Positions 5,614-38,368 of a stretch of DNA of 57,487 nucleotides are shown here, piece after piece. The DNA lies in the NCBI GenBank assembly GCA_043771175.1, contig JAYVHO010000012.1, positions 1 through 57,487 of the forward strand. Reading direction: 5' to 3'. The DNA comes from a bacterium (GTDB lineage: Bacteria > Patescibacteriota > Minisyncoccia > Phycocordibacterales > UBA1006). The notes beneath the pieces were generated by a model. It worked only from the letters and a program-made list of their open reading frames with translations. It ran no database searches and was not told the DNA's origin. Both the position numbers and the translations under genes were made by a program. The first letter of the stretch is position 1; every line of letters starts with the position of its first letter.

Positions 5614-6327
5614 ATGAAAAATTTTAGTGATTTCACTGAACAAGATTTAGAAAATCTTGTCGAGTCATGTGGTGGTCCTGAAAATGCATGGGCTCAAGTT
5701 CAAGAATTTTTAGCCAAAAAAGCAAACAACGCTACAAATCTACAAAAAGTAGATGAAAGTATTGAAGTCAAAAAGCAAAAAACAATCACATTCTGGAAAA
5801 CACAATTTAATACTGATATTCCAGAAACAGACATCATCCCACCTCAACCAGAGCATTTGTCCTATCTTAGTTGGTCACCAGAAAAATCTTTACGTAATTG
5901 TGATGAAGTATTACAAAAATACAAAGAACAATTCGGTGAAGATAATATATATTGTTACTATGATTCAATTGATGAGTCAATTCAGACACAACAAGACCGC
6001 ACAGAAGAAAGTTACTGGTACTGGCATAAGGGAGAGGAAGAACCAGATAAAAGACACCGAGGTAAATCGTACGATGTATTTTCAAAAGAAGAAACAAAGT
6101 ACATGATTCCTTTTGAAGGTATAGTGTTTGCCTATGAATATAGACTTAGCACAGGCAAAATGTTAGATATTGATGGTGTTACCTATTTTCACGCTCTGTA
6201 TTCTGGCGGCAACGTCATCCTCATGTGCGAGAACGATAGCGAATTCTACTTCGACTACAATTACCGCAATCGCAGTAATGACAAGTACGGACCCCGTGAG
6301 ATCAGTTTTAAAACTTTTCTCTTGTAA
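5614..6327 (+). CDS. DGR target protein with a C-terminal variable region (probable C-type lectin-like fold)
   Basis: The last ~45 codons contain a VR matching the downstream TR with adenine-specific differences. The fold is inferred from known DGR targets. Confidence 0.9.
   Translation: MKNFSDFTEQDLENLVESCGGPENAWAQVQEFLAKKANNATNLQKVDESIEVKKQKTITFWKTQFNTDIPETDIIPPQPEHLSYLSWSPEKSLRNCDEVLQKYKEQFGEDNIYCYYDSIDESIQTQQDRTEESYWYWHKGEEEPDKRHRGKSYDVFSKEETKYMIPFEGIVFAYEYRLSTGKMLDIDGVTYFHALYSGGNVILMCENDSEFYFDYNYRNRSNDKYGPREISFKTFLL
6193..6301 (+). repeat. DGR variable repeat (VR)
   Basis: 109-nt ungapped match to 6569-6677 with 16 mismatches; the last 28 nt are identical (IMH side). Confidence 0.97.
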
Positions 6328-6332
6328 CTTTT

Positions 6333-6365
6333 AACCCTTGCGCTTGTAAAAGTGTGAGGGTTTTT
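6333..6365 (+). promoter_or_regulatory. Hairpin 3' of VR (DGR target-recognition hairpin and/or terminator)
   Basis: aacccttgcgctt-gtaa-aagtgtgagggtt, a 13-bp stem with 3 G:T pairs and a GTAA loop, followed by a T run. Confidence 0.7.
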
Positions 6366-6568
6366 GTAATATATTAATATGGTTATTAAACTGGTTTGTG
6401 TATACAAATAGCAGTTTGCCACATTTTAAAAACTGCCTATGCTGACGTGCGTATAATAATGTATACGAAATAATGATAATGATCTTATCAAATGGATATA
6501 TAGCAGAGTATCCTCAACCCTTGGTTGCGACTGGGTGTGGTGAATAGATGTGTCAGTATAGAAACGGG

Positions 6569-7068: not shown

Positions 7069-8043
7069 AGTAATTTATTTAATAGTATAACATCGCTTGA
7101 AAATATATTAGATGCATGGAATAAATTCAAGATACAAAAACTTAAAAAATTTGGAGTGCAAGAATTTAGATATAATTTAGAAATAAATTTATTACAAATT
7201 CATAAAAAACTTATAAGTAAGAAATACATCCCAGACCCATATAAACCATTTTGTATTCAAGATCCTAAAAAACGCTTAATTCATAAAGCAGAAGTGTCTG
7301 ACAGGGTCGTGCATCAAGCAATCATTAATATTATTGAACCAATTTTTGATAAAAGTTTTATAAACGATTCTTTTTCTTGCAGAAAAGGTAAAGGAACACA
7401 CAAGGCTGTTAAAAGATTTAAATATTTTTTACAAAAAGTAAGTAAAAATAACACTCAGCAAACATGGATATTGAAGTGTGATGTTAAAAGATTTTTTGAT
7501 TCTATAAATCACGATATTTTAAAAGAACTTTTACATAAAAAAATTGAATGTTCTGAAACAATAAACCTTTTGAATATAATTATAGACAGTTTTGAAAAAT
7601 CAGAAAATACTGGATTACCACTTGGAAACTTAACAAGCCAATTTTTTGGAAATATATATTTACACGAATTAGATTTTTTTATTAAACATAGTTTGAAGGT
7701 AAAATATTATCTCAGATATTGTGATGATATGATTTTGGTAAGTAATAGTAAAATTGAACTTCAAAGTTGGCTTAAAACTATAACTGAATTTTTATACAAA
7801 AATTTGAAACTTGAAATCCATCCATCCAAGATATTTTTTAGAAAATATACCCAAGGAATGGATTTTTTAGGATATATAACATTTCCGAATTATACAATTT
7901 TAAGAAAAAGTACTAAACAAAGAATTATTAAAAAATGGTCTGGTTTGAATAATGATCAAAAAAATTCATATTACGGCGTTTTGAAATATTCAAAAAGTTT
8001 TAAAATAAAGAAAATTCTAAATAAAGAAGAAACAAATATATAA
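7017..8043 (+). CDS. DGR reverse transcriptase; 5' end frameshifted at G7 (track ORF 7156..8043 is the in-frame part)
   Basis: GLPLGNLTSQ (DGR-type SQ), YLRYCDD, RKGKGTH, and LKCDVKRFFDSI motifs. The RT frame stays open upstream to 7024 and encodes the conserved ITSLENILDAW segment, but has no ATG/GTG/TTG before 7156. Confidence 0.93.
7052..7058. repeat. G7/C7 homopolymer inside the overlapping 5' ends of RT (+) and avd (-)
   Basis: cgggggggta at 7051-7060. It is the longest G/C run I noticed in the window. Confidence 0.95.
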
Positions 8044-26432: not shown

Positions 26433-26462
26433 AAGCCCTGCCGATATATCGGCAGGGCTTTT
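26433..26462. terminator. Perfect 28-bp palindrome/terminator
   Basis: aagccctgccgata|tatcggcagggctt followed by tt. Confidence 0.7.
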
Positions 26463-26499: not shown

Positions 26500-29400
26500 A
26501 TGAAAAAACCATTATGGTATAAGCAATTAACAGTACTGCTCATATGCTCACTGTTAATGCAAAACTTATTTGCTTTCACTTTGGTACACGCTCAAGAAGA
26601 AGTTGTGATAGAAACACCTCTCACAAATTCATCCTCGGTCGATGTACCTTTTTTAATACCTCAAGAAGTTATCTCTGGTGAATTACCAAATAGAACACAG
26701 GATGTTTTGCCATCTGAAGTCTTGAAAGTAGAAATACCTACTGAAACACCAAAACCACAATTATCAGATTCAGCGCCTGACATTGCACCAGATACCACAA
26801 ATTTAAATCCAGATACCACAAATTCTCTTGCCGCAGTAGCAGAAAAAGAACAAACAGGGCGTAATGCACCATCAATAACATCAGCAACTGAACCATTTCA
26901 ACAAACAGCAGTTCTTCAAAAGCCTCAGTATGTTGCTAAGCCTGATGTTGATAATACTACCGGTGCTATGAGTTTTGATATTCCTTTTGAAATTCCAATC
27001 CCAGAAATGATTGACCAAAAACTCGTTCCTCAACTTTCTCTGTCATATAATTCAAGTAATACTGCTAAAAATACCCCTTTTGCATATGGTTGGAACTTTG
27101 ATATACCAAGTATTTATCGAATTAATGAGCGTGGAACTGATAAGATGTACCAGTATAGTACAAGCCTCATGTCTTCAAAATATGGAATTATTCGATATAT
27201 AAATGATGGATATTCTGTATATAATGCTGATGTAATTCCGCAAGAAATTAAATCTAAAAACATGAATGCATATCCAAAAGAACTTGAATTCGGGTATCAA
27301 AAAGATATAACGAAAGAAACCTATCAATTATTTGCAAAGCCAAATAATGAATCGGTTAAAGAAAGTACGATAGCTGGTGATGTTGCGAATGATATTACGA
27401 GCTCGGTTATCGTTGTGGATACTACTACCGAAAATTCATTTTCTTCGTCAAATCAAGCAAAGCAAGTTTTTACACCTGCCATTGAGGTACCATCAACAAA
27501 TATAAATCCAACCGCACCAGTTTCTCAAAATGCGATGGTTCCCATTATTGATAACGGAACGCAAACAGAAATAATTTTAAATAGTGCAACCTATATTGAG
27601 CGTAGTTCCGACGGGTATATGTATTATTATGGATATGATGACAGTTCACGACAAAATTCGGCAACTGATCCATATAAAATTTATAAATGGGCACTATCCA
27701 AAATAATTAGCCCAAAAGGTGATAGGACAGAATATTATTATATTGAGTCAAATGGACAATTGTATATTTCAAATATTAAGTATGGTTTAAATACTACTAC
27801 CGACACAGGTGCCTATTCCATCGACTTTACCTACAACATGATTACACCATTTAAAGCATATGATACGGGCTTTGAGGTAGTAACGGATCGCTTGCTTTCT
27901 GAAGTGGTGGTAAAATCTATGATTACCAATCAAGTGGTATATAAATATCAACTCAATTACTCAATTGATAGCAGTTTTTCTTACAATTTATTAAATTCAG
28001 TAAATAAGATTTCTGCAACAAATTCAGAATCTCTCTACTCATTTGGTTACACAACGGGGGGTGGACAGTTTTCTACAACGGGTATTCCGATGACAACAGC
28101 AAGCGGAGGACAAAATGCAAACTGTAGTATTCAGGATTCAATTGATGGATTATGCCGTCAATTGCTTGATTTAAATGGTGATGGTTTGACTGATTATTAC
28201 ACTATTGATAATACATATGGTTATTTAACCGTAAAATGGTATATAAATAATGGTGTTGAATTTGTATATTATTCAAATTCTCAAATATCATTAAACAATA
28301 CTGGAGGTTCATATAATATGGTATTTGATGTGAACGGAGATAATATGCCGGATCTCATTACTCATGAATTAAATGGTTCTAAAAATGTTTTTATCAATAA
28401 CGGAGAAAAATGGCAATACCGATATGATTGGATAGCACCACCATTTAGTTTGCGAAATTTTTCTCTGCGGTCAGATGTCAAAAATTTTGGTGTTACCTAT
28501 TCTGATGGGTGTTGGACAGGAGAATGGAATTGTTCTGTATTTAAAGGGTTCATTTTTGATATCAATAAAGATGGATTAAATGATATTTTTAGACTTAAAG
28601 GTGCTCAAGATCAAGAGTTGTGGATAAATAATGGAAGTGGTTGGACTCTTGATACTTCAGGTAATTTTAAAATTTCATTTACGAGCTATGAAACATTTAG
28701 CACGATTATGAGCGATAATGTTAAATATAGTTTGGTTGATATTAATGGTGATGGATATGAAGATTTCTTTAAACAATCATCAGAAAATAGTACCAGCTAT
28801 ATGGCATATCTGTATAATCCAAGTAACTTGCAATGGTATTATGTTGGTGCTTTTTCGCCTTCATTTAATGTATGTGGATTGTATTCAAGCTGTCCATTTT
28901 CAATGAGTGATTTAAATAATGATGGACTGATTGATATTTTTACCAATTCTCGTATTTATCTTAACAAGGGATATGACTTTTCGCTGGTGTTTGATAGAGA
29001 TCCAAATACTGGTCAAGTAAATGTTAATAATGGGTTTTCTATGGCATCGGTGCCACATAATAACATTGCCGCATTTTCATCATTTTCTGGTAATGGTTCT
29101 GTTGATGTGTATACCACCAACAATTCCGTTCAATATACAAGTAATGGAAAAGATGGTTTTGCTACTTTAAACGGATGGAATGCTAATGAGGCATATCAGC
29201 AAAAGTTTATTGATATGAATGGTGATACTATGACGGATAAGGTTACTCAAAATGCTGTGTATTTAAATCAAGCCACAACTCCAGGATTACTCAATTCAAT
29301 TAAAAACAAATACGGTGGTGTAGCTCAAGTGAATTACAAAACATCAACTGCATATACAACGCACCAAGGATATACTGCGCCAATCAAAACTGTTGCGAGT

Positions 29401-32400
29401 ATTAATTTTATTTCATGTGCAATTACCGGTAGTAATGCATTTCAGGATACCTGTACGGAAAATGGAAAAGTTGAGTATGCCTATGATGGTGGTGTTTTTG
29501 GTTTAGATATATTTGGTAAGTCATACAATTTTTCTGGATTTAGAACAGTAAAGAAGAAAACGTATAATCAAAATAATCAGCTTTTGGATAATGCGGTATA
29601 CACCTATAACGTAAACGAAAGTACCTATCCTGATTATTATAGAAATGCCATAAATAAGTCATTGCAAGGTATCGAATATTACGGATCAAATGGAAATATT
29701 ATTAAATCATCCTATTATTCATATTATGTATTTAACCAAGATCATATAACAACGAAGCAAGAATTTAAATCGATTCGTCCATCATATGAATTTAATAGTG
29801 TTTCAAGCTCATCATCTACCATTGAGCTTGATAACAAGATATATTTTTATAATTCAACAAAGCAATTAGCTAAAGTGTGCTACGGCACTAATAATCATAT
29901 AACTGGTGATGTGAATGCGTGCGGGCTTAAAAATGATGTTTTTTTCTATACGAGTCCATACTGGGGAGAGATATTTAAAACAGAAACATATAATTCAGCG
30001 GGGTTTAAAGTAAAATCAAATGAATTTTACTATGATAATTTGGCCCTTGGTTTAACTTCGGCTGCACGCAACCTTACTCAAACGGTTGAATCAGTTGATG
30101 ATTCCAGTTTAAAAAATGAAACCTATGAATATAATTCGAAAGGAAGATTAACTAAAAAAATATTCCACGGAGGTAGAAGTATTACGTATGCATATGAACC
30201 AAATCAATTGTTTGTTACATCAGAAACGGATCAATTAGGTTACATTACTACAAACACCTGGAACTATGGTTTTGCTAAGCCACAAACTAAAACACTACCT
30301 GATGGGGGAATTATTAGTTATACCTATGATGGGCTTGGGACTCCAACGCAAACTATGCTTGCGTATGGTGTTAAGAAAAGAATCAGTCAGGTGATTGAAT
30401 ATCCATGCCAATCAGTATGTGCATCATGGCTTTCATATAGAATAGTAAGTTCATCAAATAATACCAGTAACGGTGAGAATATGTCAGAAGAATCGTATCA
30501 ATTATTAGATGGATGGGGTGAAGTAGTTTCTGAAAGAATCAATAAAGGGATTGCAAAAGGGGTTGCGTCATATGTATATTCACATACCGTGCGTGATGTT
30601 CTGGGAAGAATAATAAAAAAATCAATTCCAACGAGTTCAACCACGAAACTTTCACAAGATTATACGACAACAACATATGACACATTGTCTCGTCCCGTGC
30701 AAGTAGAAAATACACTAGGAATAGTGACCAATATCTATGATGGTATGTATGTTACCACTACAAAACCAAGCGGTAATAAAAAGATGGTGAGATACAATAC
30801 GTCAGGAGGAATCGCTGCTGTTTATGAATACCTTACACCAACATCAACACCGTTTGTCACTTCATATTGGTATGACCACAATAACAATATAAAAGGTATT
30901 ACTAATGCGGCAGGACAATCAAAATTCTTTACCTATAATCATATAGGACAATTGACATATGTTACTGATTTTAAGTCGTCAAATGACACTACCTATATGT
31001 CAAATTCGATCATATATTATATTTCATCGGGTGCAGTGTTTCAGTCAAAAGATGATGTTCCAGGTACCTCTACGTGGAATTATGTGGATAATTTAGGTCG
31101 TAGTACGATGTTGTTTTATCAAAACCCTGCACTCACAGGAAGTGCATCATTTGAAAATCGGTATTCGTACACGTATGATACTTGTGTTGGTGGTATCAGA
31201 AAAGTTTGTTCAGTAACAAGTAATAAAAATAACTATAAAGATGAATATACCTATGGAGCATTCGGGCAGATTACTACTTTTAAAAGAACACTCCTCGCAC
31301 CAAAACCAGGTGCAGCTGCGTCAGCGATCGCGTACAGCGTTTCATATGAATATAATCAACGTGGTGCTGTTTCAAAAATTATTTACCCAAACAATTCATA
31401 TGTCAGATATACGTATGGTGACTTTGAAAAGGTAGAAAATGTTTATTACTTTTCACCTATCACCAATCAAGAACTTTTAATTGGAACATATACATACAAT
31501 GCACTTGGGCAACCAGTGACGGTTGCAACTCGCCAAGGAACATATACTAATCAATACAACTCAAATAAGCTTAATCAATTATCAACAAAAACATTTAAGC
31601 GTCGTGGTGATTCAAAATCACTACTATCAACTAGTTTTATTTATGATAGTGATGGAAATTTAGTATTCATAAATGATGCACCACAAGTAGGTGATGCTAC
31701 TATGAAGACGTACCAATATGATGGCCTTGGAAGACTTACTCAATCAGGGTACAGCAATAATAATCCATCTGTTCCAAATACTACCGACACGTACACATAT
31801 GCTTCAACCGGTGTGTTAATGCAAAAAAATCTGACAACCGTAAATAAATCTCCTAGCACCACCACTACGGTAGTTACCAATTACCAATACGGTGGCACCA
31901 GTTATGAAAGCCCCTATGCACCAACACAAATTGGAGACACAACCCTTACCTATGATACCTATGGAAACGTAATTCGATATAACACCATCGGTCCAGACAA
32001 AGGAACAGAAATAACATACAACGGCTTGCGCCAAATTGAAACCGTTAAAGATTATTCAGGAGTTCAAAAAACTAAAGCGTCAACCATTACAGTATTTCCA
32101 GATGTACAAGTTAATTCACCAAGTGTTCCTTATACGTTCACTGACGAGGAGGGATCATTAGTTAATTCATTAGCAGAAGTTGACACGGCAGGTGTAATTG
32201 AACCTCAGTCAACGGTACCTGCTCCTGTGGTATCTGCAGGTGGGGGAGGAGGAGGCGGTGGTGGCGGTGGTTCACCAGGTCCAGTACCAGTACAAAAAGT
32301 TGCCGGAACTTCAGTGGTTGTTATTGATGATTATTGTCAATTGATAGAACTTGGCACTACTAATTCAAAATCACTCACATCAAATATCCTTACATTGGAA

Positions 32401-33939
32401 TCAATTTTGGTAAATAAATTGTTCCTTTCAAAAAAATACCGTGATGGAAAATGGGATATACAAACAACACGTGCAATGAAACGACTTCAATCAAAGATGA
32501 GGGTCAAGCAAACGGGGGTGTTTGATATCACAACCAAAAAAGCAGTTTCAAAAAATCTATGTAATAAGAAAGAATTAAAGAATAGTACCTTATTAAAACT
32601 ATTCTCTGAAATTAAAGTAGCGTTTGAGCCAAAGAAAGCCTATGCAGAAGTAGTCATGAAACCAGGTACTAAAATAACCGGCCCCGTATCAATCCGCCAA
32701 GGAGCGTCCCGCGGAGTCTATCAAGGAACCATCACCGGCCCCTGCACCATTGTTGGTGCCTACACCACCTGTACCACCAAATCTCTCCCTCATGCTCAAA
32801 TGACCTATGATGACAGTGGTCAAAGAATCCAATACATAACTCCAGATTCTATAGAAACCACTATAGTCCCAGAATACGTAGTAAAAAACAACAAACCAAC
32901 GCTTACTATTACCATAGAAGGAATCCCCCTCATCATCATAGAAGACTCCGCAAACACCTATCCGGTAGTAGATTACCAAAACTCTCCCAAACTCCTTCTC
33001 AACCAATACTCTCAACGTATAGAAGAACGAGACTACACTGACTACGGATCAGAAAGATACACCAGATCTACCACTCCATCATCTAAAACAGATAAAACCT
33101 ACACTAACCACCAATTAGATAATGAAATACGGTTTCAGTACTTAGGTGCACGGTACTATGACCCTGAACTATCTATCTTTCTAACGATGGATCCTGCTAC
33201 AACATACGTTCCTCAAGATATATTAAATCCTCAATCATTTAATACGTATGGGTATGCAGAGGGGAATCCGGTGATGAAGGTGGATCCGGATGGAGAAAAT
33301 GCCGTTGATGTATCTGTTGGAATAGGTACTGGAATATATGGAACCACCGTAGGTACTATACAAACAGTATGGATAATCATGGCAAGTCCATATTCAAAAG
33401 CTGCTGCCGAACAGTATCAAGAATTAACAAGTCAAACAGCTGATTTCTATATTGATGCTGGTAAAGGAGCTGCATATCTTGCTCAAGATCCACAAGGATT
33501 TACTAATGATCTTGTTACCTTAACCAAGGCAGATGGTGGTGCTGCAATAGGTCAAGCTATTGGTGCGGGGATAGGAGCAGGGATTGTGACTGCTGGGGTG
33601 GGGAGGATAAGCACAGCGGGGAGTGTGGCAAAAGTTTCGACAACTGCCGAAGTGGGAACTTATTCAACATACCGTGGATTTGATGCTAATACTGGAGCTG
33701 TAAAATATACCGGTATAACAAGCAGAAATCCAATTATAAGATTTAATGAGCATTTAAAGTCAGCAGGAACTGGAAAAGAAAATTTAAGATATAGGGTAAC
33801 AGAAGCAAATATTACAAAGAATGCAGCCAAGAAAATTGAACAAGCTGATATAAATAAATTTGGTCTTCAAAAAAATGGTGGACAATTGTTGAACAAGATA
33901 AATTCGATTGGCAAAAAGATTATAAAAAAGCTAAAATAA
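26500..33939 (+). CDS. RHS/YD-repeat polymorphic toxin (signal peptide, SpvB-like, FG-GAP/VCBS repeats, YD repeats, RHS core, GIY-YIG-like C-terminal toxin)
   Basis: Signal peptide ending VHA; VDNTTGAMSFDIPF...QLSLSYNSS...GWNF (SpvB-like); repeated DxNGDGxxD; core RYYDPELSIFLTMDP...GNPVMKVDPDG; tip YTGITSRNPIIRFNEH...IEQ...GGQLLNKINSI. Confidence 0.93.
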   Translation: MKKPLWYKQLTVLLICSLLMQNLFAFTLVHAQEEVVIETPLTNSSSVDVPFLIPQEVISGELPNRTQDVLPSEVLKVEIPTETPKPQLSDSAPDIAPDTTNLNPDTTNSLAAVAEKEQTGRNAPSITSATEPFQQTAVLQKPQYVAKPDVDNTTGAMSFDIPFEIPIPEMIDQKLVPQLSLSYNSSNTAKNTPFAYGWNFDIPSIYRINERGTDKMYQYSTSLMSSKYGIIRYINDGYSVYNADVIPQEIKSKNMNAYPKELEFGYQKDITKETYQLFAKPNNESVKESTIAGDVANDITSSVIVVDTTTENSFSSSNQAKQVFTPAIEVPSTNINPTAPVSQNAMVPIIDNGTQTEIILNSATYIERSSDGYMYYYGYDDSSRQNSATDPYKIYKWALSKIISPKGDRTEYYYIESNGQLYISNIKYGLNTTTDTGAYSIDFTYNMITPFKAYDTGFEVVTDRLLSEVVVKSMITNQVVYKYQLNYSIDSSFSYNLLNSVNKISATNSESLYSFGYTTGGGQFSTTGIPMTTASGGQNANCSIQDSIDGLCRQLLDLNGDGLTDYYTIDNTYGYLTVKWYINNGVEFVYYSNSQISLNNTGGSYNMVFDVNGDNMPDLITHELNGSKNVFINNGEKWQYRYDWIAPPFSLRNFSLRSDVKNFGVTYSDGCWTGEWNCSVFKGFIFDINKDGLNDIFRLKGAQDQELWINNGSGWTLDTSGNFKISFTSYETFSTIMSDNVKYSLVDINGDGYEDFFKQSSENSTSYMAYLYNPSNLQWYYVGAFSPSFNVCGLYSSCPFSMSDLNNDGLIDIFTNSRIYLNKGYDFSLVFDRDPNTGQVNVNNGFSMASVPHNNIAAFSSFSGNGSVDVYTTNNSVQYTSNGKDGFATLNGWNANEAYQQKFIDMNGDTMTDKVTQNAVYLNQATTPGLLNSIKNKYGGVAQVNYKTSTAYTTHQGYTAPIKTVASINFISCAITGSNAFQDTCTENGKVEYAYDGGVFGLDIFGKSYNFSGFRTVKKKTYNQNNQLLDNAVYTYNVNESTYPDYYRNAINKSLQGIEYYGSNGNIIKSSYYSYYVFNQDHITTKQEFKSIRPSYEFNSVSSSSSTIELDNKIYFYNSTKQLAKVCYGTNNHITGDVNACGLKNDVFFYTSPYWGEIFKTETYNSAGFKVKSNEFYYDNLALGLTSAARNLTQTVESVDDSSLKNETYEYNSKGRLTKKIFHGGRSITYAYEPNQLFVTSETDQLGYITTNTWNYGFAKPQTKTLPDGGIISYTYDGLGTPTQTMLAYGVKKRISQVIEYPCQSVCASWLSYRIVSSSNNTSNGENMSEESYQLLDGWGEVVSERINKGIAKGVASYVYSHTVRDVLGRIIKKSIPTSSTTKLSQDYTTTTYDTLSRPVQVENTLGIVTNIYDGMYVTTTKPSGNKKMVRYNTSGGIAAVYEYLTPTSTPFVTSYWYDHNNNIKGITNAAGQSKFFTYNHIGQLTYVTDFKSSNDTTYMSNSIIYYISSGAVFQSKDDVPGTSTWNYVDNLGRSTMLFYQNPALTGSASFENRYSYTYDTCVGGIRKVCSVTSNKNNYKDEYTYGAFGQITTFKRTLLAPKPGAAASAIAYSVSYEYNQRGAVSKIIYPNNSYVRYTYGDFEKVENVYYFSPITNQELLIGTYTYNALGQPVTVATRQGTYTNQYNSNKLNQLSTKTFKRRGDSKSLLSTSFIYDSDGNLVFINDAPQVGDATMKTYQYDGLGRLTQSGYSNNNPSVPNTTDTYTYASTGVLMQKNLTTVNKSPSTTTTVVTNYQYGGTSYESPYAPTQIGDTTLTYDTYGNVIRYNTIGPDKGTEITYNGLRQIETVKDYSGVQKTKASTITVFPDVQVNSPSVPYTFTDEEGSLVNSLAEVDTAGVIEPQSTVPAPVVSAGGGGGGGGGGGSPGPVPVQKVAGTSVVVIDDYCQLIELGTTNSKSLTSNILTLESILVNKLFLSKKYRDGKWDIQTTRAMKRLQSKMRVKQTGVFDITTKKAVSKNLCNKKELKNSTLLKLFSEIKVAFEPKKAYAEVVMKPGTKITGPVSIRQGASRGVYQGTITGPCTIVGAYTTCTTKSLPHAQMTYDDSGQRIQYITPDSIETTIVPEYVVKNNKPTLTITIEGIPLIIIEDSANTYPVVDYQNSPKLLLNQYSQRIEERDYTDYGSERYTRSTTPSSKTDKTYTNHQLDNEIRFQYLGARYYDPELSIFLTMDPATTYVPQDILNPQSFNTYGYAEGNPVMKVDPDGENAVDVSVGIGTGIYGTTVGTIQTVWIIMASPYSKAAAEQYQELTSQTADFYIDAGKGAAYLAQDPQGFTNDLVTLTKADGGAAIGQAIGAGIGAGIVTAGVGRISTAGSVAKVSTTAEVGTYSTYRGFDANTGAVKYTGITSRNPIIRFNEHLKSAGTGKENLRYRVTEANITKNAAKKIEQADINKFGLQKNGGQLLNKINSIGKKIIKKLK

Positions 33940-33940
33940 T

Positions 33941-34471
33941 ATGATGAATATACTCAAAAGATACAAACCAAAAATTGGAGATTATTACGTAATCCCAATA
34001 CATGAAAGAAATACAAAATATTACTTCCAAATAGTAGGAGTAGATGAAATACAATTGGGAAGTGAAGTAATTGTAATTCTTGATAAAGAATATAAGATGC
34101 AAGAAAATCCAACAACTGAAGAGTTAGATTCACATGCAATGTTGTTCTATACACATGTATTTGTTCCCGTCGGTGTAAAACATAAAGTTTGGGAATATTC
34201 AGGTATAAATAGTAAATTAAACGATAGATATTTAAAAGAAGAATTTAAATTCAAAGGATCTAGTGATAGTGGTGAATTAAATTATCAACTTTCTTCAGAT
34301 TGGAAAATATGGAAACTTGGTGACAAAGAATGGGCTAGTGTTGTAAAAATTCCAAAAGACTTTGTTGATTCTGAAAACGATTTAGTCTTTACACCATTAG
34401 ATGTAAAAGACAGAATTGCAAATGGTAGTTATAAAATAGACTGGTATCCTCTCTTCGAAATCGAAGAATAA
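33941..34471 (+). CDS. Immunity protein, Imm26-like
   Basis: Starts 2 nt after the toxin stop; KIGDYYVIPI...YFQIVG N-terminal pattern resembles Imm26. Confidence 0.7.
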   Translation: MMNILKRYKPKIGDYYVIPIHERNTKYYFQIVGVDEIQLGSEVIVILDKEYKMQENPTTEELDSHAMLFYTHVFVPVGVKHKVWEYSGINSKLNDRYLKEEFKFKGSSDSGELNYQLSSDWKIWKLGDKEWASVVKIPKDFVDSENDLVFTPLDVKDRIANGSYKIDWYPLFEIEE

Positions 34472-34499
34472 ACATTATTAAATTAATCAAAATAACTAT

Positions 34500-34688
34500 A
34501 TGAAATATATACAAAACATAAAATCAATCATAACGGTAATCGGATTACTTATCGTGTATATGATTTTCGAATTCATAGCTCCAAATGTTACTTCTGATAC
34601 CATAGATACGCTATTTGGAAATCTTATTGGTATTGGACTTGTTGTGGCTTTGATTATTGACTTGATGAGATATTTGAAGAAAAAGTAA
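34500..34688 (+). CDS. Small two-TM hypothetical protein
   Basis: 62 aa with two hydrophobic helices, in the toxin operon orientation. Confidence 0.55.
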   Translation: MKYIQNIKSIITVIGLLIVYMIFEFIAPNVTSDTIDTLFGNLIGIGLVVALIIDLMRYLKKK

Positions 34689-34689
34689 A

Positions 34690-35643
34690 ATCATTACCAT
34701 AGAAGACTCCGCAAACACCTATCCGGTAGTAGATTACCAAAACTCTCCCAAACTCCTTCTCAATCAATACTCTCAACGTATAGAAGAACGAGACTACACA
34801 GACTACGGATCAGAACGATACACCAGATCTACCACTACATCATCTAAAACAGATAAAACCTACACTAATCACATATTAGATAATGAAATACGTTTCCAGT
34901 ACTTAGGTGCTAGATACTATGATCCTGAATTATCTATCTTTCTGACGATGGATCCTGCTACAACATACGTTCCACAAGATATATTAAATCCTCAATCATT
35001 TAATACGTATGGGTATGCGGAGGGGAATCCGGTGATGAAGGTGGATCCGGATGGGAAGGAGCCAAAACAAGGTCAACTTGCAACATTATCTCAAGTTGTT
35101 GAATATATAACCTATAAAAACATAAGTAATTATCAAAATCAAATTAGTTTCGGAGAACTAGCAAAAGCATTTGGGGATAATGTGAAATGGGATAAAAATA
35201 TTGGTGGTGGGTACGTTATGATTCAATCTGGCTCACCAAGATATATTTATACCGAAAATTCAGGATGGATTGATATGCAGCATTTCTTTGGCTCAGCCGA
35301 ATATACACAAAAATATGGTAAAAACATAACTTTAGTAGGTGGTTATTTGTTTGAATTACTTCAAGAACAAGTCTTGAAAGGACAAAAGGCATCAGGTTTT
35401 TCATACGAAGACATAACCTCAAATTATTATGGTGCTCAATTTTCAAAACAGTATTCATTAAAAATTAAAAATGGTGATATTACAGTACAAGATGCAATAT
35501 ATGAGTTTTTTAATATGATGGAACCTAAAAAACCAATTGAATCACCAAATATTGATAAAATCCCGTTTCAAACAAATAAATCCGGGCCATCTCAAAAATC
35601 AAACACTGTAAAAAAGAAAAATAATAAAAAGAAAAATAAATAG
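34690..35643 (+). pseudogene. Orphan RHS core plus alternative C-terminal toxin cassette (no native start)
   Basis: The frame is open from 34678 with no ATG until the internal Met at 34948. After DPDG comes an unrelated tip containing RYIYTENSGWIDMQHFF...FSYEDITSNYYG. Confidence 0.88.
34698..35054 (+). repeat. Direct repeat of the RHS core (copy of 32937-33293)
   Basis: 357 bp, ungapped at offset 1761, with about 17 substitutions by hand count (~95% identity); it ends exactly at the DPDG codons. Confidence 0.95.
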
Positions 35644-35660
35644 TAGAATATAATTATTAT

Positions 35661-36239
35661 ATGAAAAATACTTCAAAAATAAAAAACATAGTTTTGTTCT
35701 CGCTAGGGTTTGTAATTTCTACGCTCATTATTAATACTCTTCAGCTAATTCCTATTAATGAGATCACACCTTTTGTGGCGTGTATAAAAAATGCATTAAG
35801 TGTCATGCTGGCTATAGGCGTAGCGCTAAGTGTTTTTTTTGCATTTTTTGTACTATGGTTAATTATTCAAAAAAAGCTTAATTTGGTATTAAAAAAATAT
35901 AATTTAGTTCTTCTTTCTAAAATAGTATATATAGTAATTACTGGAATAGGTGTTATATATTTCACGGTATCTATTTTATCTATTTTTGATAGATTAGATT
36001 CAAAATATCTCAGTAGTAAAATGGCTAGAGGTGTTTTTGGGAATACCATTGGCCATGAATTGATGTTATCGGACACCAGCGAGAGAGTATACTATAAAAT
36101 GATGATGGGCGATCGTCTTTATTATGAAAAAGGCTCGACGATATTGTATTGTGGATTAGAAAACTATAAAAAATGTGTTCAAGATACTGTCGAGTATAAA
36201 TTTATTAATCAAGATGTATATATTGAATATAATTTGTAA
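35661..36239 (+). CDS. Putative membrane immunity protein for the orphan toxin
   Basis: Directly follows the orphan tip and has three N-terminal TM segments. The role is inferred from position. Confidence 0.55.
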   Translation: MKNTSKIKNIVLFSLGFVISTLIINTLQLIPINEITPFVACIKNALSVMLAIGVALSVFFAFFVLWLIIQKKLNLVLKKYNLVLLSKIVYIVITGIGVIYFTVSILSIFDRLDSKYLSSKMARGVFGNTIGHELMLSDTSERVYYKMMMGDRLYYEKGSTILYCGLENYKKCVQDTVEYKFINQDVYIEYNL

Positions 36240-36257
36240 TTAAATAATGGATGATAT

Positions 36258-36732
36258 ATGAAAGCAAGTAACGAAACAAAAATATGGGTTGCAATAGTAT
36301 TTGTAATTATTGTCTTAATAACAATTAGAATCATATATACCAAAAATGAGACAAAATTTGAAAGAAAACTAACCAATCTTGTACAATCAAAATAACTATA
36401 TTGTTGATGCAAATAATATAATTGATGAAGATTGGGATTATGTGCTTGTGGGTAGAGGAGTTGATTATAATAATGTAGAAATGAAAGATGTTGTTGATTA
36501 TGATAATTTCAAACTTCAAGCATTAGACGGTAACGTTTTGGTATTTTATAAAAATAACAAGATTATACAGATGTCAAACTTTCAAGTTTTGATTGAGGGA
36601 TATAAGCAAAATGAAATATGGATTAATACATCAGATAAAATAATAAAAGTAAATTACGGACATCTCAATTTTATAACAAAGATTATAGATTATGATAAAT
36701 CCGTAATTGAACTTACTTTGTTTTCTAACTAA
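36258..36732 (+). pseudogene. Frameshifted membrane-anchored, immunity-like protein
   Basis: MKASNETKIWVAIVFVIIVLITIRII...LVQSK* joins ...NNYIVDANNIIDEDWDYVLV... if one base is removed, for example from the A4 at 36389-36392. Confidence 0.6.
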
Positions 36733-36734
36733 AA

Positions 36735-36892
36735 ATCACCGGCCCCTGCACCATTGTTGGTGCCTACACCACCTGTACCACCAAATCTCTCCCTCATGCT
36801 CAAATGACGTACGATGACAGTGGTCAACGAATCCAATATATAACACCAGATTCTATAGAAACCACCATCGTTTCAGAATACGTAGTAAAAAA
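36735..36892 (+). repeat. Truncated third copy of the RHS pre-core segment (copy of 32731-32888)
   Basis: 158 bp, ungapped at offset 4004, with mostly third-position changes. It is not followed by a core or a tip. Confidence 0.92.
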
Positions 36893-37081
36893 TCAACACT
36901 TACAATTTTTGAATAAATGGCTATAACCGCATGGTAAATACATGAGATACCATGTACTTTACAAAATATGTAATATATGTTATTATAAGTTTGTCGTGTT
37001 AGAGAACAAGCACGTAAATCCTTGCAGGTGTAAGGTGGTCAGACGTAAAACTGATCGTTCATAACTTAAAAATTAAAAAAG

Positions 37082-37798
37082 ATGACAAAGATTAAAGTAG
37101 GAATTTCGCTTGCGTTCGTTATCCTTATGGGATGTTTCATGTTCGGATTTACCGAATTTATGGGGATATTGTTTAATCCCATTGTTAATTTTCTTTTTGT
37201 GAAGGTACCTGTGTGGTTTAATCTTTTGGAAATCATAGTGGTGTTGATAGTTTATTTTGCATATAACAAGGCAGTTAATAGACAACATCAGCCAGATACA
37301 CTTTCCAGGTCAAGAGAGCTTTTAAAAGAAGCTTTGGCGATTCAACAAAACCCTGCAGAATATGCAAATATTGAAGAACTCAAAAAATTCGAAAAGTTTA
37401 CTCGACACAAAGAAACTACCGATGGCTTTAAAAAAATTTCACAATCTACGGTAAATGCAATTCTTCGACACTTTGATTATAAAACCGTTTTTCATATTAA
37501 TTATGCAGATGGAACTATAAACTGGAATCCCGAAGAAGCTCGAATATTGTGCGGAGCCCTCCAGCAGTGTGAAATGATTGCCGGTTCTGATATTGCTTAT
37601 TCAGTTAAACATAATTTACGTAAATTTTTACGTCAAATTATCGAGCTTGATGACAAGATTTTTAAGAAATCAGGTAGCAAGAAAGCACTGATTTTGTACT
37701 TACAGGAAAATCTAGATATTTATCGAAGAAAATACATAGATTGTGAATTTTTCTTTGGGGTAAAATTTAGTAAAAAAAAGTTAGTTGCCACTATGTAA
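37082..37798 (+). CDS. Hypothetical membrane-anchored protein
   Basis: Two N-terminal TM segments followed by a soluble helical domain. Confidence 0.7.
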   Translation: MTKIKVGISLAFVILMGCFMFGFTEFMGILFNPIVNFLFVKVPVWFNLLEIIVVLIVYFAYNKAVNRQHQPDTLSRSRELLKEALAIQQNPAEYANIEELKKFEKFTRHKETTDGFKKISQSTVNAILRHFDYKTVFHINYADGTINWNPEEARILCGALQQCEMIAGSDIAYSVKHNLRKFLRQIIELDDKIFKKSGSKKALILYLQENLDIYRRKYIDCEFFFGVKFSKKKLVATM

Positions 37799-37849
37799 AA
37801 AAAATAGTGTTTAATTTCTAAAAATCCGCATCGGAATGATGCGGATTTT

Positions 37850-38368
37850 TTATTGCACGCGGACGCGGTTTTGGCGTTCTTTATCTATCTTTGGCATCTT
37901 AATGGTGAGAAGTCCAAATTCTTCTTTGGCGTCAGTGTTGTCAATATCTACTTCGTCAGGAAGTTCAATAACTCTTTCAAAATCTCCCCATACCAGTTCA
38001 CTGACATGACGGGTTTCTCGGTAACTGTTGGTAGTTGGTTCTTGGCGATTGATGTTAATAGTCAAGGCACTGCGAGTGAGAGAAATCTGAACATCGTTTT
38101 TACGCGCACCTGACGTGAAGGCTGTGACAAAGATAGCATCATGAGTTTCAATTAAATCAATGGGTAGAACTTGAACAGGTTCTTCAATAATTTCTTCTAT
38201 AATGGGAAGATTCTTTATTTTCACGGTACCGAGGTTTTGAATAGAAAGATCGTCCGAATCTTCTTCAAGTTCTAGTTGGTCGTCATATTCTTCATCATAC
38301 TCAACATATGATCCACCAAAGTTAAAAAGGTCTTTTACTTTTTGCCAAAATGATTGCTTCTCGTACAT
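37850..38368 (-). CDS. Hsp20/alpha-crystallin small heat-shock protein
   Basis: PIDLIET...WGDFERVIELPDEVD...AKEEFGLLTIKMPK. Confidence 0.93.
   Translation of the reverse strand: MYEKQSFWQKVKDLFNFGGSYVEYDEEYDDQLELEEDSDDLSIQNLGTVKIKNLPIIEEIIEEPVQVLPIDLIETHDAIFVTAFTSGARKNDVQISLTRSALTININRQEPTTNSYRETRHVSELVWGDFERVIELPDEVDIDNTDAKEEFGLLTIKMPKIDKERQNRVRVQ

Follow-up and report, generated by a model that had tools for sequence, protein, structure and literature searches.

Downstream of the sole full-length rhs gene assembled in this Patescibacteria-type genome of a groundwater-type bacterium, the window (the whole 57,487-nt stretch of DNA analysed) carries what is probably an orphan rhs-CT module, in which a displaced, start-less toxin tip of the CapCone-1 family and its own immunity-type gene lie behind the main gene and could be swapped into it by crossover. 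The sequence-only reading had likewise seen an orphan cassette here, and the anatomy of the locus supports it. The main-plus-orphan layout of Rhs systems is already known and the CapCone-1 family was described in 2025; the locus adds a clear example of this layout in an ultra-small genome and assigns a previously unplaced tip to a lipid-targeting family, which is predicted to attack lipid-linked precursors of the cell wall from the cell's outside. The features of the array are as follows.

26500-33939, + strand: full-length rhs gene, 2479 aa, with signal peptide, SpvB-like/FG-GAP part, YD/RHS repeats, PG_binding_1-like insert, core and tip
32930-33294, + strand: rhs core repeat copy 1, the 3' core end of the main gene, which stops at DPDG
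33295-33939, + strand: main tip, 214 aa, with a GIY-YIG-like C-terminal domain after a hydrophobic stretch rich in Gly and Ala
33941-34471, + strand: 176-aa Imm26-like soluble protein, candidate immunity for the main tip
34500-34688, + strand: 62-aa ORF with two transmembrane (TM) segments, closing the main-tip module, with a stop 2 nt 5' of the orphan repeat
34691-35055, + strand: rhs core repeat copy 2, the orphan's 5'-truncated core, with the YYDP, TMDP and PVMKVDPDG motifs kept
35056-35643, + strand: orphan tip, 195 aa plus stop, assigned by sequence to the CapCone-1 family of the Lipocone superfamily
35661-36239, + strand: 192-aa membrane protein with about three TM segments, candidate cognate immunity, starting 18 nt past the tip's stop
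36379-36732, + strand: 117-aa acidic soluble ORF, last of the orphan module, its stop 2 nt 5' of the second core fragment
36735-36898, + strand: second rhs core fragment, a pseudogene 94% identical to 32731-32893, frameshifted by a 1-bp insertion and without a tip
37082-37798, + strand: 238-aa protein with two N-terminal TM segments, listed for its position only

The main gene encodes an Rhs protein with a Sec-type signal peptide (hydrophobic segment at residues 11-29), Pfam matches to SpvB (2e-09), FG-GAP_3 (1.7e-09), RHS_repeat and PG_binding_1, and an RHS-associated core (TIGR03696, E 1.2e-13). Scanned whole against Pfam, its tip gave no match; the last 100 aa match GIY-YIG (PF01541) over profile positions 4-72 of 78 with an E of 8e-4 and a score of 20.1 bits, below the gathering threshold of 22.6. 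The 176-aa protein encoded next has no TM segment and a sub-threshold match to PF15428 (E 0.013). Another contig of the same genome, C17, encodes homologues of both: one of the main tip, at 46% identity, and one of the 176-aa protein that matches Imm26 with an E of 5e-4.

The two core copies form a 365-bp repeat on the same strand and in the same frame, with 94-95% nucleotide identity and 117 of 119 residues identical, and a repeat of this length at 95% within 57 kb excludes chance as its origin. Both copies contain PVMKVDPDG, and identity breaks off in both at the Gly codon, which ends at 33294 in the main gene and at 35055 in the orphan. Beyond this point the 214-aa main tip and the 195-aa orphan tip, which begins KEPKQGQ and carries RYIYTENSGWIDMQHFF and SYEDITSN, are unrelated in sequence. 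The sequence-only reading had described a 357-bp core copy about 95% identical to 32937-33293, ending exactly at DPDG and fused to an unrelated tip of about 195 aa with its own downstream membrane protein, and this description is borne out on each count, with the repeat now measured slightly longer. The orphan core fragment itself matches TIGR03696 with an E of 4.6e-15. The copies differ at 19-20 nucleotide sites, falling in 18 codons of which 15 are changed synonymously (dN 0.014, dS 0.23, dN/dS 0.06), and the second core fragment has nine mismatches, eight of them synonymous. That nearly all differences are synonymous suggests that the copies diverged inside working genes, as expected of displaced or imported cassettes, and the fact that the two core copies are still 5% apart argues that homogenising exchange between them is not frequent.

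By sequence, the orphan tip is a member of CapCone-1, which belongs to the ClaspCone-CapCone-TelC clade of the Lipocone superfamily (Burroughs, Nicastro and Aravind, eLife 2025, PMC12419801). The Lipocone active site comprises a His in H2, a Glu in H3 and an Asp in H4, with a downstream polar residue and a Gly cap in H4 (PMC12419801). The predicted counterparts in the orphan tip are H76, E100 and D119, which are invariant in family alignments of 25 and 28 sequences, together with N123 at D+4 and G126, the latter present in at least 90% of aligned sequences. Conservation extends further to G70, D73, S113, S116 and S122, and all family-invariant residues are kept. The CapCone and clade signatures, namely a Gly at position -6 and xD at -4 of the H2 His, S/GxxSxx before the H4 Asp with an aromatic residue before the Ser, and a small residue and Asn at D+3/D+4 (PMC12419801), are all present as G70, I72-D73, S113-G-F115-S116-Y-E-D119 and S122-N123. 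P0022, which is RPD94046.1 and an entry in the family authors' CapCone-1.tsv, matches the orphan tip with an E of 1.6e-15, and the same table also contains the core sequences of P0024 and of the proteins at loci L030 and L034. CapCone-1 members are soluble domains in which a beta-hairpin clasp and an extra strand leading into H2 precede a helical core (PMC12419801). The AF2 model of the orphan tip (pLDDT 81) has this clasp-plus-helical-core architecture, with predicted strands at 44-47, 53-57, 63-66 and 70-73 followed by helices at 74-87, 89-109, 117-138 and 144-154, and the tip contains no TM segment.

Against Pfam and NCBIfam the orphan tip gave only sub-threshold matches, to DUF4056 and DUF2279. 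Membership of DUF4056 (PF13265) was rejected in favour of the sister family, as the match covers the H2 motif only and scores 16.6 bits against a threshold of 23.6. Sub-threshold DUF4056 matches also occur in 7 of 25 members of the tip family, and a search for true DUF4056 proteins found none in this genome, in five other genomes or in 14 controls. The earlier suggestion of DUF4056-like motifs therefore came close, CapCone-1 being the sister of CapCone-DUF4056, but did not name the family itself. Searches of PDB sequences with the single tip sequence and with a profile returned nothing relevant, and in a Foldseek search of the PDB with the tip model the best match had an E of 1.1, with no solved structure alike, TelC included.

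By analogy, the orphan tip would act outside the cytoplasm, where its predicted reaction is the cleavage of lipid II-like, phosphate-linked head groups from lipids. As presented in the 2025 survey, the only member of the clade whose activity has been measured is TelC, a lipid II phosphatase that works exclusively outside the cytoplasm (Whitney et al. 2017, in PMC12419801). The sequence-only reading had called the tip's activity unknown; a family can now be named and with it a predicted reaction. Action outside the cytoplasm would fit a membrane-anchored immunity candidate, and each of the Lipocone immunity proteins is described as either a TM protein or a lipoprotein (PMC12419801). The 192-aa protein has a C-terminal domain of about 85 aa, predicted by hydropathy and the positive-inside rule to face outward. 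Our searches found no homologue of this protein, and none of the 106 ORFs that follow related tips is related to it, so that position and topology are what argue for its immunity role.

The tip family, with 355 representative clusters, invariably occupies the C-terminus of its carriers, which are RHS proteins of 1250-2500 aa, VENN/CdiA-type proteins, Bacteroidota scaffolds and archaeal proteins. In a genome of the same family (G012, here identical to Cand. Nomurabacteria RIFCSPLOWO2_01_FULL_36_10b), it sits on a full-length 2053-aa RHS protein and is followed by a small TM protein. The proteins encoded 3' of 30 related tips mostly have an N-terminal TM segment or signal anchor. In a word-indexed protein search the single tip query recovered only the tip itself, and a profile recovered 12 matches.

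The two core copies lie 1761 bp apart, start to start, and since 1761 is 3 x 587, a crossover product keeps an open frame; computed, this product is in frame and free of stops, with 2265 + 195 aa. If a RecA-type crossover took place inside the 365-bp repeat, precisely these 1761 bp would be lost and a full-length, in-frame rhs gene ending in the CapCone-1 tip would remain; the genome encodes RecA. The deletion length proposed earlier is correct, but the interval had been described as a GIY-YIG/Imm26 pair and in fact has three parts: the main tip, the Imm26-like gene and the 62-aa two-TM ORF. Most likely, an incoming cassette made of these three parts displaced the CapCone-1 tip from the end of the main gene. 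The frameshifted core fragment further downstream, which does not figure in the sequence-only reading, points to serial tip displacement and would be the record of an older round. The 238-aa protein beyond it has no family match and may be an orphan immunity gene left by a lost third tip. All nine mismatches of the second core fragment fall in the last 90 of its 164 aligned nucleotides, and the first 74 are identical. Once delivered, the CapCone-1 tip would, by analogy with TelC, reach the target membrane from outside and cut phosphate-linked head groups there, either of lipid carriers or of membrane lipids; the 192-aa protein would block it at this outer face through its predicted outward-facing C-terminal domain.

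The same anatomy is also expected of a displaced relic that is kept only for its immunity gene, and the two readings differ only in the future fate of the cassette: in a relic the tip decays and never swaps, and selection acts on the 192-aa protein against neighbours that fire CapCone-1. Decay is indeed seen in the array, in that the second core fragment carries a frameshift and no longer has a tip, with a TM protein still downstream; orphan immunity genes have been described in the literature, the core repeats are not homogenised, and no recombinant was seen in the one other assembly that carries the locus. The orphan tip itself, however, has an unbroken frame across 196 codons in DNA of 30% G+C, retains the cleavage motif in full along with all residues invariant in the family, and adjoins a repeat whose synonymous divergence argues for little or no neutral decay since displacement. 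We therefore regard a relic as rather unlikely and favour a cassette that can still be swapped. A counterpoint to the swap is that a plain deletion would also remove the immunity gene of the main toxin, a costly loss among siblings; the Salmonella swap needed a prior duplication (PMC3967940).

A stronger proposal is that the array is an actively used two-state weapon, in which a RecA-mediated swap would exchange a GIY-YIG-like nuclease that has to get into the target cytoplasm for a CapCone-1 payload for which arrival at the outer face of the target's membrane is enough, both on the same Sec-exported shell. On this view the identical first 74 nt of the second core fragment could be the footprint of an exchange that the array and the main gene underwent recently. 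We consider this proposal quite doubtful, but if true it would change which neighbours or host cells are open to attack.

The open frame of the orphan spans 34678-35643 (321 codons, stop to stop), and the orphan begins 2 nt past the stop of the 62-aa ORF. It encodes neither an RHS shell nor a signal peptide. The cassette had been said to lack a start codon; an in-frame ATG is in fact present at 34948, from which public gene callers annotate a 231-aa gene, but it is the conserved core Met of LTMDP, shared with the main gene, and does not have the A-rich leader of real starts here. Because of this ATG, we infer, rather than read directly, that the cassette is silent and start-less. Since it lacks a signal peptide and a shell, and probably a credible start as well, the orphan tip would probably not be made as a secreted toxin by itself. 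Its candidate immunity gene would still be readable from a common transcript: a scan of the + strand over 28165-37860, which covers the end of the main gene through the end of the 238-aa ORF, found no terminator-like site. A promoter scan was uninformative, giving fewer matches than shuffled sequence. Translation of the tip inside the producer, from ATG 34948 or from GTG/ATG 35032/35035, would instead make the cassette a toxin-antitoxin-like module of the kind reported for the Salmonella rhs-CT orphan. In Salmonella, Rhs-CT expression is indeed driven by internal promoters and internal starts (PMC7043789); here, a GGAGG stands 8-11 nt 5' of 35032/35035, and the annotated 231-aa protein would be such a product. 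This genome, however, does not use Shine-Dalgarno sites (such motifs stand before 3% of first ATGs, the background being 7%). The tip's clade acts outside the cytoplasm, with TelC reported as inactive inside cells, the domain of the candidate immunity protein is predicted to face outward, and a protein translated from within the frame would lack a signal peptide. Together with the character of ATG 34948, these points make a toxin-antitoxin-like module very improbable.

Relatives of the locus are few. The only other assembly that carries it is a 197-kb ENA scaffold, 100% identical over 20.7 kb, which probably derives from the same population and shows no recombinant junction or alternative arrangement. 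A genome of the same genus (G001) has a divergent, non-syntenic rhs gene with another tip, no repeats and no orphan. Close relatives of the core or the tip were absent from the collections searched; an exact search of JGI metagenomes for the tip junction gave no match, and the core protein has one relative there, at 28% identity. That the array is an assembly artefact, joining the tip alleles of two co-existing strains in tandem through their shared core repeat, is scarcely credible: the source is a metagenome (ENA ERZ28573538, sample SAMN19433714), and the rhs-bearing contig C17 closes on itself by a 99-bp overlap, so that repeats do disturb this assembly, but the orphan's junctions are unique sequence continuous with their flanks (the 62-aa ORF stop 2 nt upstream, the 192-aa gene downstream), the repeats differ at enough sites not to have been collapsed, and the 197-kb scaffold has the same arrangement, albeit possibly from the same reads.

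One toxin gene and its spare parts take up about 11 kb of the 670-kb assembly (~1.7%). If the swap is real, even episymbiont-sized genomes would hold interchangeable payloads for different cell compartments. As a compact candidate pair, the orphan tip and the 192-aa protein would also lend themselves to the first toxin/immunity biochemistry of CapCone-1.

The closest precedent is the rhs-main (STM0291)/rhs-CT-orphan (STM0292) locus of Salmonella Typhimurium (Koskiniemi et al. 2014, PMC3967940), where recombination was shown experimentally to join the orphan tip onto the main gene, with deletion of the main tip and its immunity gene. The earlier reading was thus right to cite a precedent for recombination of orphan RHS modules. 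In both loci, a full rhs gene and its immunity gene are followed by a core fragment with a different tip and an immunity gene of its own, the fragment being probably start-less and both immunity genes candidates in the present locus, and the repeat is 95% identical, although it is 365 bp here as opposed to 522 bp in Salmonella. The two also differ in their tip families and in their hosts, the present one being a CPR-type monoderm of 0.67 Mb whose Rhs protein has a Sec signal and whose locus showed no T6SS, PAAR or VgrG context; the swap is proposed here from anatomy and frame arithmetic. More broadly, the array resembles orphan cdiA-CT/cdiI and rhs-CT/rhsI arrays, in which tandem start-less tip and immunity cassettes lie 3' of a main gene and keep a short pre-toxin stretch (Poole et al. 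2011, PMC3150448; Zhang et al. 2012, PMC3482391). It departs from them in having one intact orphan and one decayed fragment, and in its lineage, CPR/Patescibacteria.

As with published CapCone-1 domains, the tip has all the signatures, belongs to a family found as the C-terminal tip of polymorphic toxins including RHS, and has a membrane-anchored immunity-type neighbour. Unlike them, this copy is an orphan and not a deployed tip, and the candidate immunity protein, with three TM segments and a C-terminal domain, lies outside the recurrent neighbour families of related tips. TelC/TipC of Streptococcus intermedius falls in the same superfamily clade under the 2025 classification, which describes TelC as soluble and as toxic only from outside the cytoplasm, with an immunity protein at the membrane (PMC12419801). 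TelC is delivered by a T7SS/LXG route, whereas the carrier here is a Sec-exported RHS shell, and the two toxins have no detectable sequence or Foldseek similarity.

Bacillus subtilis WapA is a Sec-dependent YD/RHS toxin of a monoderm bacterium. A WapA-type YD/RHS toxin of another monoderm is described for S. suis (PMC12704120). With the WapA type, the main gene here shares a signal-peptide RHS toxin with a wall-binding module, a host with no outer membrane, and polymorphic tips with adjacent immunity genes. It differs from WapA in its N-terminal part, which is SpvB/FG-GAP-like (TcB-like).

A repeat scan of the window reveals a direct repeat at 32930-33229 and 34691-34990 (94% identical, spacing 1761 bp), which base-by-base comparison lengthens to 32930-33294 and 34691-35055, and for which a whole-genome search returns 95% identity over 364-365 nt and no third copy. 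Each copy codes for the last part of the RHS-associated core, with TIGR03696 E-values of 1.2e-13 for the main gene and 4.6e-15 for the orphan, and their likeness ends exactly past the Gly codon of ...NPVMKVDPDG. Repeat scan, base comparison and TIGR03696 together confirm the sequence-only reading of an RHS-core copy that ends at DPDG and is fused to an unrelated tip of ~195 aa, with a membrane protein behind it. That reading recovered the orphan cassette but missed a second core fragment, with which the array falls into three units.

Order of the array
26500-33939, + strand: unit 1, full-length rhs main gene (2479 aa) with tip 1 (33295-33939, 214 aa)
33941-34471: unit 1, Imm26-like gene
34500-34688: unit 1, 62-aa ORF
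34691-35055: unit 2, 5'-truncated core fragment (orphan)
35056-35643: unit 2, tip 2 (195 aa), directly after the repeat
35661-36239: unit 2, 192-aa membrane protein
36379-36732: unit 2, 117-aa ORF
36735-36898: unit 3, decayed core fragment
37082-37798: unit 3, 238-aa protein with two TM segments

The fragment at 36735-36898 matches 32731-32893, the main-gene stretch directly 5' of the first repeat copy, at 94% identity; a 1-bp insertion breaks its frame, and no tip follows it. Its start lies 2 nt past the 117-aa ORF's stop, and the orphan, whose frame is open over 34678-35643, likewise begins 2 nt 3' of the stop of the 62-aa ORF. Such an ordered series of three units is what older tips serially displaced by incoming cassettes would be expected to leave (Poole 2011, PMC3150448; Zhang 2012, PMC3482391; Koskiniemi 2014, PMC3967940). 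The 238-aa protein that comes after the decayed fragment may be an orphan immunity gene product. At 25-30%, the G+C content of 35056-36732 (orphan tip, 192-aa gene and 117-aa ORF) lies below that of the window (35%) and of the main tip (38%), as would fit a foreign origin of the cassette.

Searched in full by HMMER with the orphan tip, 1.84 billion representatives gave 355 matching clusters at E <= 0.001, and the match is C-terminal in every protein found. RHS proteins 1249-2518 aa long are among the carriers, as are scaffolds of Bacteroidota and numerous short fragments; a profile search added one VENN-motif (CdiA-type) protein and one RHS fragment; loci with related tips occur in Bacteroidota, several CPR lineages, Acidobacteria, Poribacteria and DPANN/Thaumarchaeota archaea. 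This spread of carriers and taxa is typical of a polymorphic-toxin domain. Invariant or nearly so in the alignments are R62, G70, W71, D73, H76, E100, Q103, S113, S116, Y117, E118, D119, S122 and G126 (numbered within the tip), all of which the orphan tip keeps.

In the Lipocone superfamily the active site is composed of His (H2), Glu (H3) and Asp (H4), and the CapCone signatures comprise a Gly six positions ahead of the His, an xD motif that also precedes the His, S/GxxSxx leading up to the Asp, where an aromatic residue stands ahead of the Ser, and, following the Asp, a small residue and an Asn, on a fold with a beta-hairpin clasp and an extra strand (Burroughs, Nicastro and Aravind, eLife 2025, PMC12419801). 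The tip carries these published motifs as G70, I72-D73 and H76; E100; S113-G-F-S116-Y-E-D119; and S122-N123 with G126. An AF2 model (pLDDT 81, pTM 0.78) places four strands within 44-73 and, after them, helices at 74-87, 89-109, 117-138 and 144-154. On sequence grounds we assign the tip to the CapCone-1 family because one of its matches, P0022 (E 1.6e-15), is GenBank RPD94046.1, an accession in the CapCone-1 table of those authors, which also contains the core sequences of a second match, P0024, and of the archaeal loci L030 and L034. The motifs had earlier been likened to DUF4056, which proved close: Pfam gives sub-threshold matches to DUF4056 (the RYxYT..GWxDxxHF stretch) and DUF2279 (SYEDxxSNxxG), so that membership of DUF4056 itself is rejected; CapCone-1 is its sister family. 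Sequence searches of the PDB with the tip returned nothing, and Foldseek found no solved structure resembling the model (best E 1.1); kinship of the tip with TelC is taken from the published classification.

TelC, the only assayed toxin of the ClaspCone-CapCone-TelC clade, splits lipid II where undecaprenol joins the pyrophosphate-linked head group; its activity is confined to the outside of the cytoplasm, and every immunity protein of a Lipocone toxin is either a TM protein or a lipoprotein (PMC12419801). A comparable mechanism is predicted for the orphan tip. Next 3' of 30 related tips there is usually a gene for a small protein anchored at its N-terminus by a TM segment or signal, or in archaea for a polytopic membrane protein, in agreement with the membrane-anchored immunity-type proteins of that paper. 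These neighbours include one HEAT-repeat lipoprotein family in Poribacteria and one recurrent family of N-terminally anchored proteins of ~100-166 aa directly 3' of CapCone-1 tips in Bacteroidota (L023, L024, L025, L029, L038, L042 and L013); the latter has no Pfam match and may be the BamE-like immunity family of the same paper. The N-terminus of the 192-aa protein and the second loop of its ~3 TM segments are rich in Lys, and the positive-inside rule, a crude method, predicts that its C-terminal domain of 85 aa faces outward. Neither a protein search nor the ORFs downstream of related tips yielded a homologue, as is common for immunity proteins; by position and topology it is the candidate immunity protein of the orphan tip.

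For the main pair, the proposed GIY-YIG and Imm26 labels are plausible, short of proof: the last 100 residues of the main tip match GIY-YIG just below threshold (E 8e-4), the gene 3' of it matches Imm26 below threshold, and contig C17 of the same genome holds a homologous toxin/immunity pair (46% and 30% identity, respectively). That C17 pair, a GIY-YIG-like tip with an Imm26-like gene, is one of two further rhs core/tip/immunity modules on C17, the other having an Ntox44 tip (E 1.8e-14); their core family differs, being ~34% identical to the core on C12 (the window), and no full-length rhs with a C17-type core is assembled in the genome. C17 (3599 bp) closes on itself with a 99-bp terminal overlap, the only such contig among 23, which a tandem array, a circle or an assembly cycle could each explain.

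Among the 121 codons shared by the repeat copies, 18 differ, 15 of them synonymously, and 13 of 20 base differences lie at third positions (dN 0.014, dS 0.23); between the second fragment and the main gene, 8 of 9 mismatches are synonymous. The copies thus diverged while each lay within a translated, selected gene, and the orphan sequence bears little sign of neutral decay since. All nine mismatches of the second fragment fall in the final 90 of 164 aligned nt, the first 74 being identical (p ~0.005 under uniform scatter, by our own arithmetic), a clustering that is a hint of earlier exchange with the main gene and may be a gene-conversion footprint.

The host is a CPR/Patescibacteria-type organism, since Candidatus Nomurabacteria RIFCSPLOWO2_01_FULL_36_10b belongs to its family (the locus in comparison genome G012 and the named locus L020 encode the same protein); the assembly comprises 670 kb in 23 contigs, with the window as the whole of contig C12, and is ~90% complete. 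SD-like motifs are depleted 5' of its genes (3% of 378 first ATGs versus 7% background), and translation initiation appears SD-independent. True starts in the rhs locus have A/T-rich leaders. A perfect palindrome with a 12-bp stem at 26433-26460 (AAGCCCTGCCGATATATCGGCAGGGCTT), 40 nt 5' of the rhs start, is probably a bidirectional terminator insulating the operon.

The claim that the cassette lacks a start codon holds only in part. Public collections start a 231-aa gene at an in-frame ATG, 34948, yet this codon is the conserved core Met (LTMDP) that the main gene shares, and it is not preceded by an A-rich leader as six neighbouring genes are. GGAGG precedes GTG/ATG 35032/35035, in a genome that avoids such motifs. 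A promoter scan gave fewer matches than shuffled sequence and is thus uninformative; no terminator-like site was found on the + strand over 28165-37860, so read-through of the array from the main gene is possible. We infer that the orphan tip is not produced as an exported toxin and that the candidate immunity gene is co-transcribed.

The repeat offset (1761 = 3 x 587) is such that a crossover anywhere in the repeat would give a computed open frame of 2265 + 195 residues. The proposed 1761-bp deletion would take out the 62-aa ORF along with the main tip and Imm26-like gene. RecA is encoded on contig C20. The other assembly carrying the orphan is identical over 20.7 kb; JGI metagenomes contain no exact match to the tip junction, the one core relative there being 28% identical, and a same-genus genome (G001) has a different, non-syntenic rhs and no orphan. 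G006, listed in the same family, has a main rhs and a start-less orphan on the reverse strand of contig C16 (L046; copies at 6071-6381 and 7479-7787, a 312-bp repeat at 86% identity) with lipoprotein-type neighbours; this parallel carries little weight, as its proteins look Bacteroidota-like and the contig may be misbinned.

In the Salmonella precedent, exchange between rhs-main and orphan involved 522 bp at 95% identity, and a prior duplication spared the main immunity gene (PMC3967940); loss of the main immunity gene would be a cost here too. The rhs-CT orphan cassette is of an ordinary type and well preserved; its host is unusual, and its tip is now assignable to a family published in 2025.
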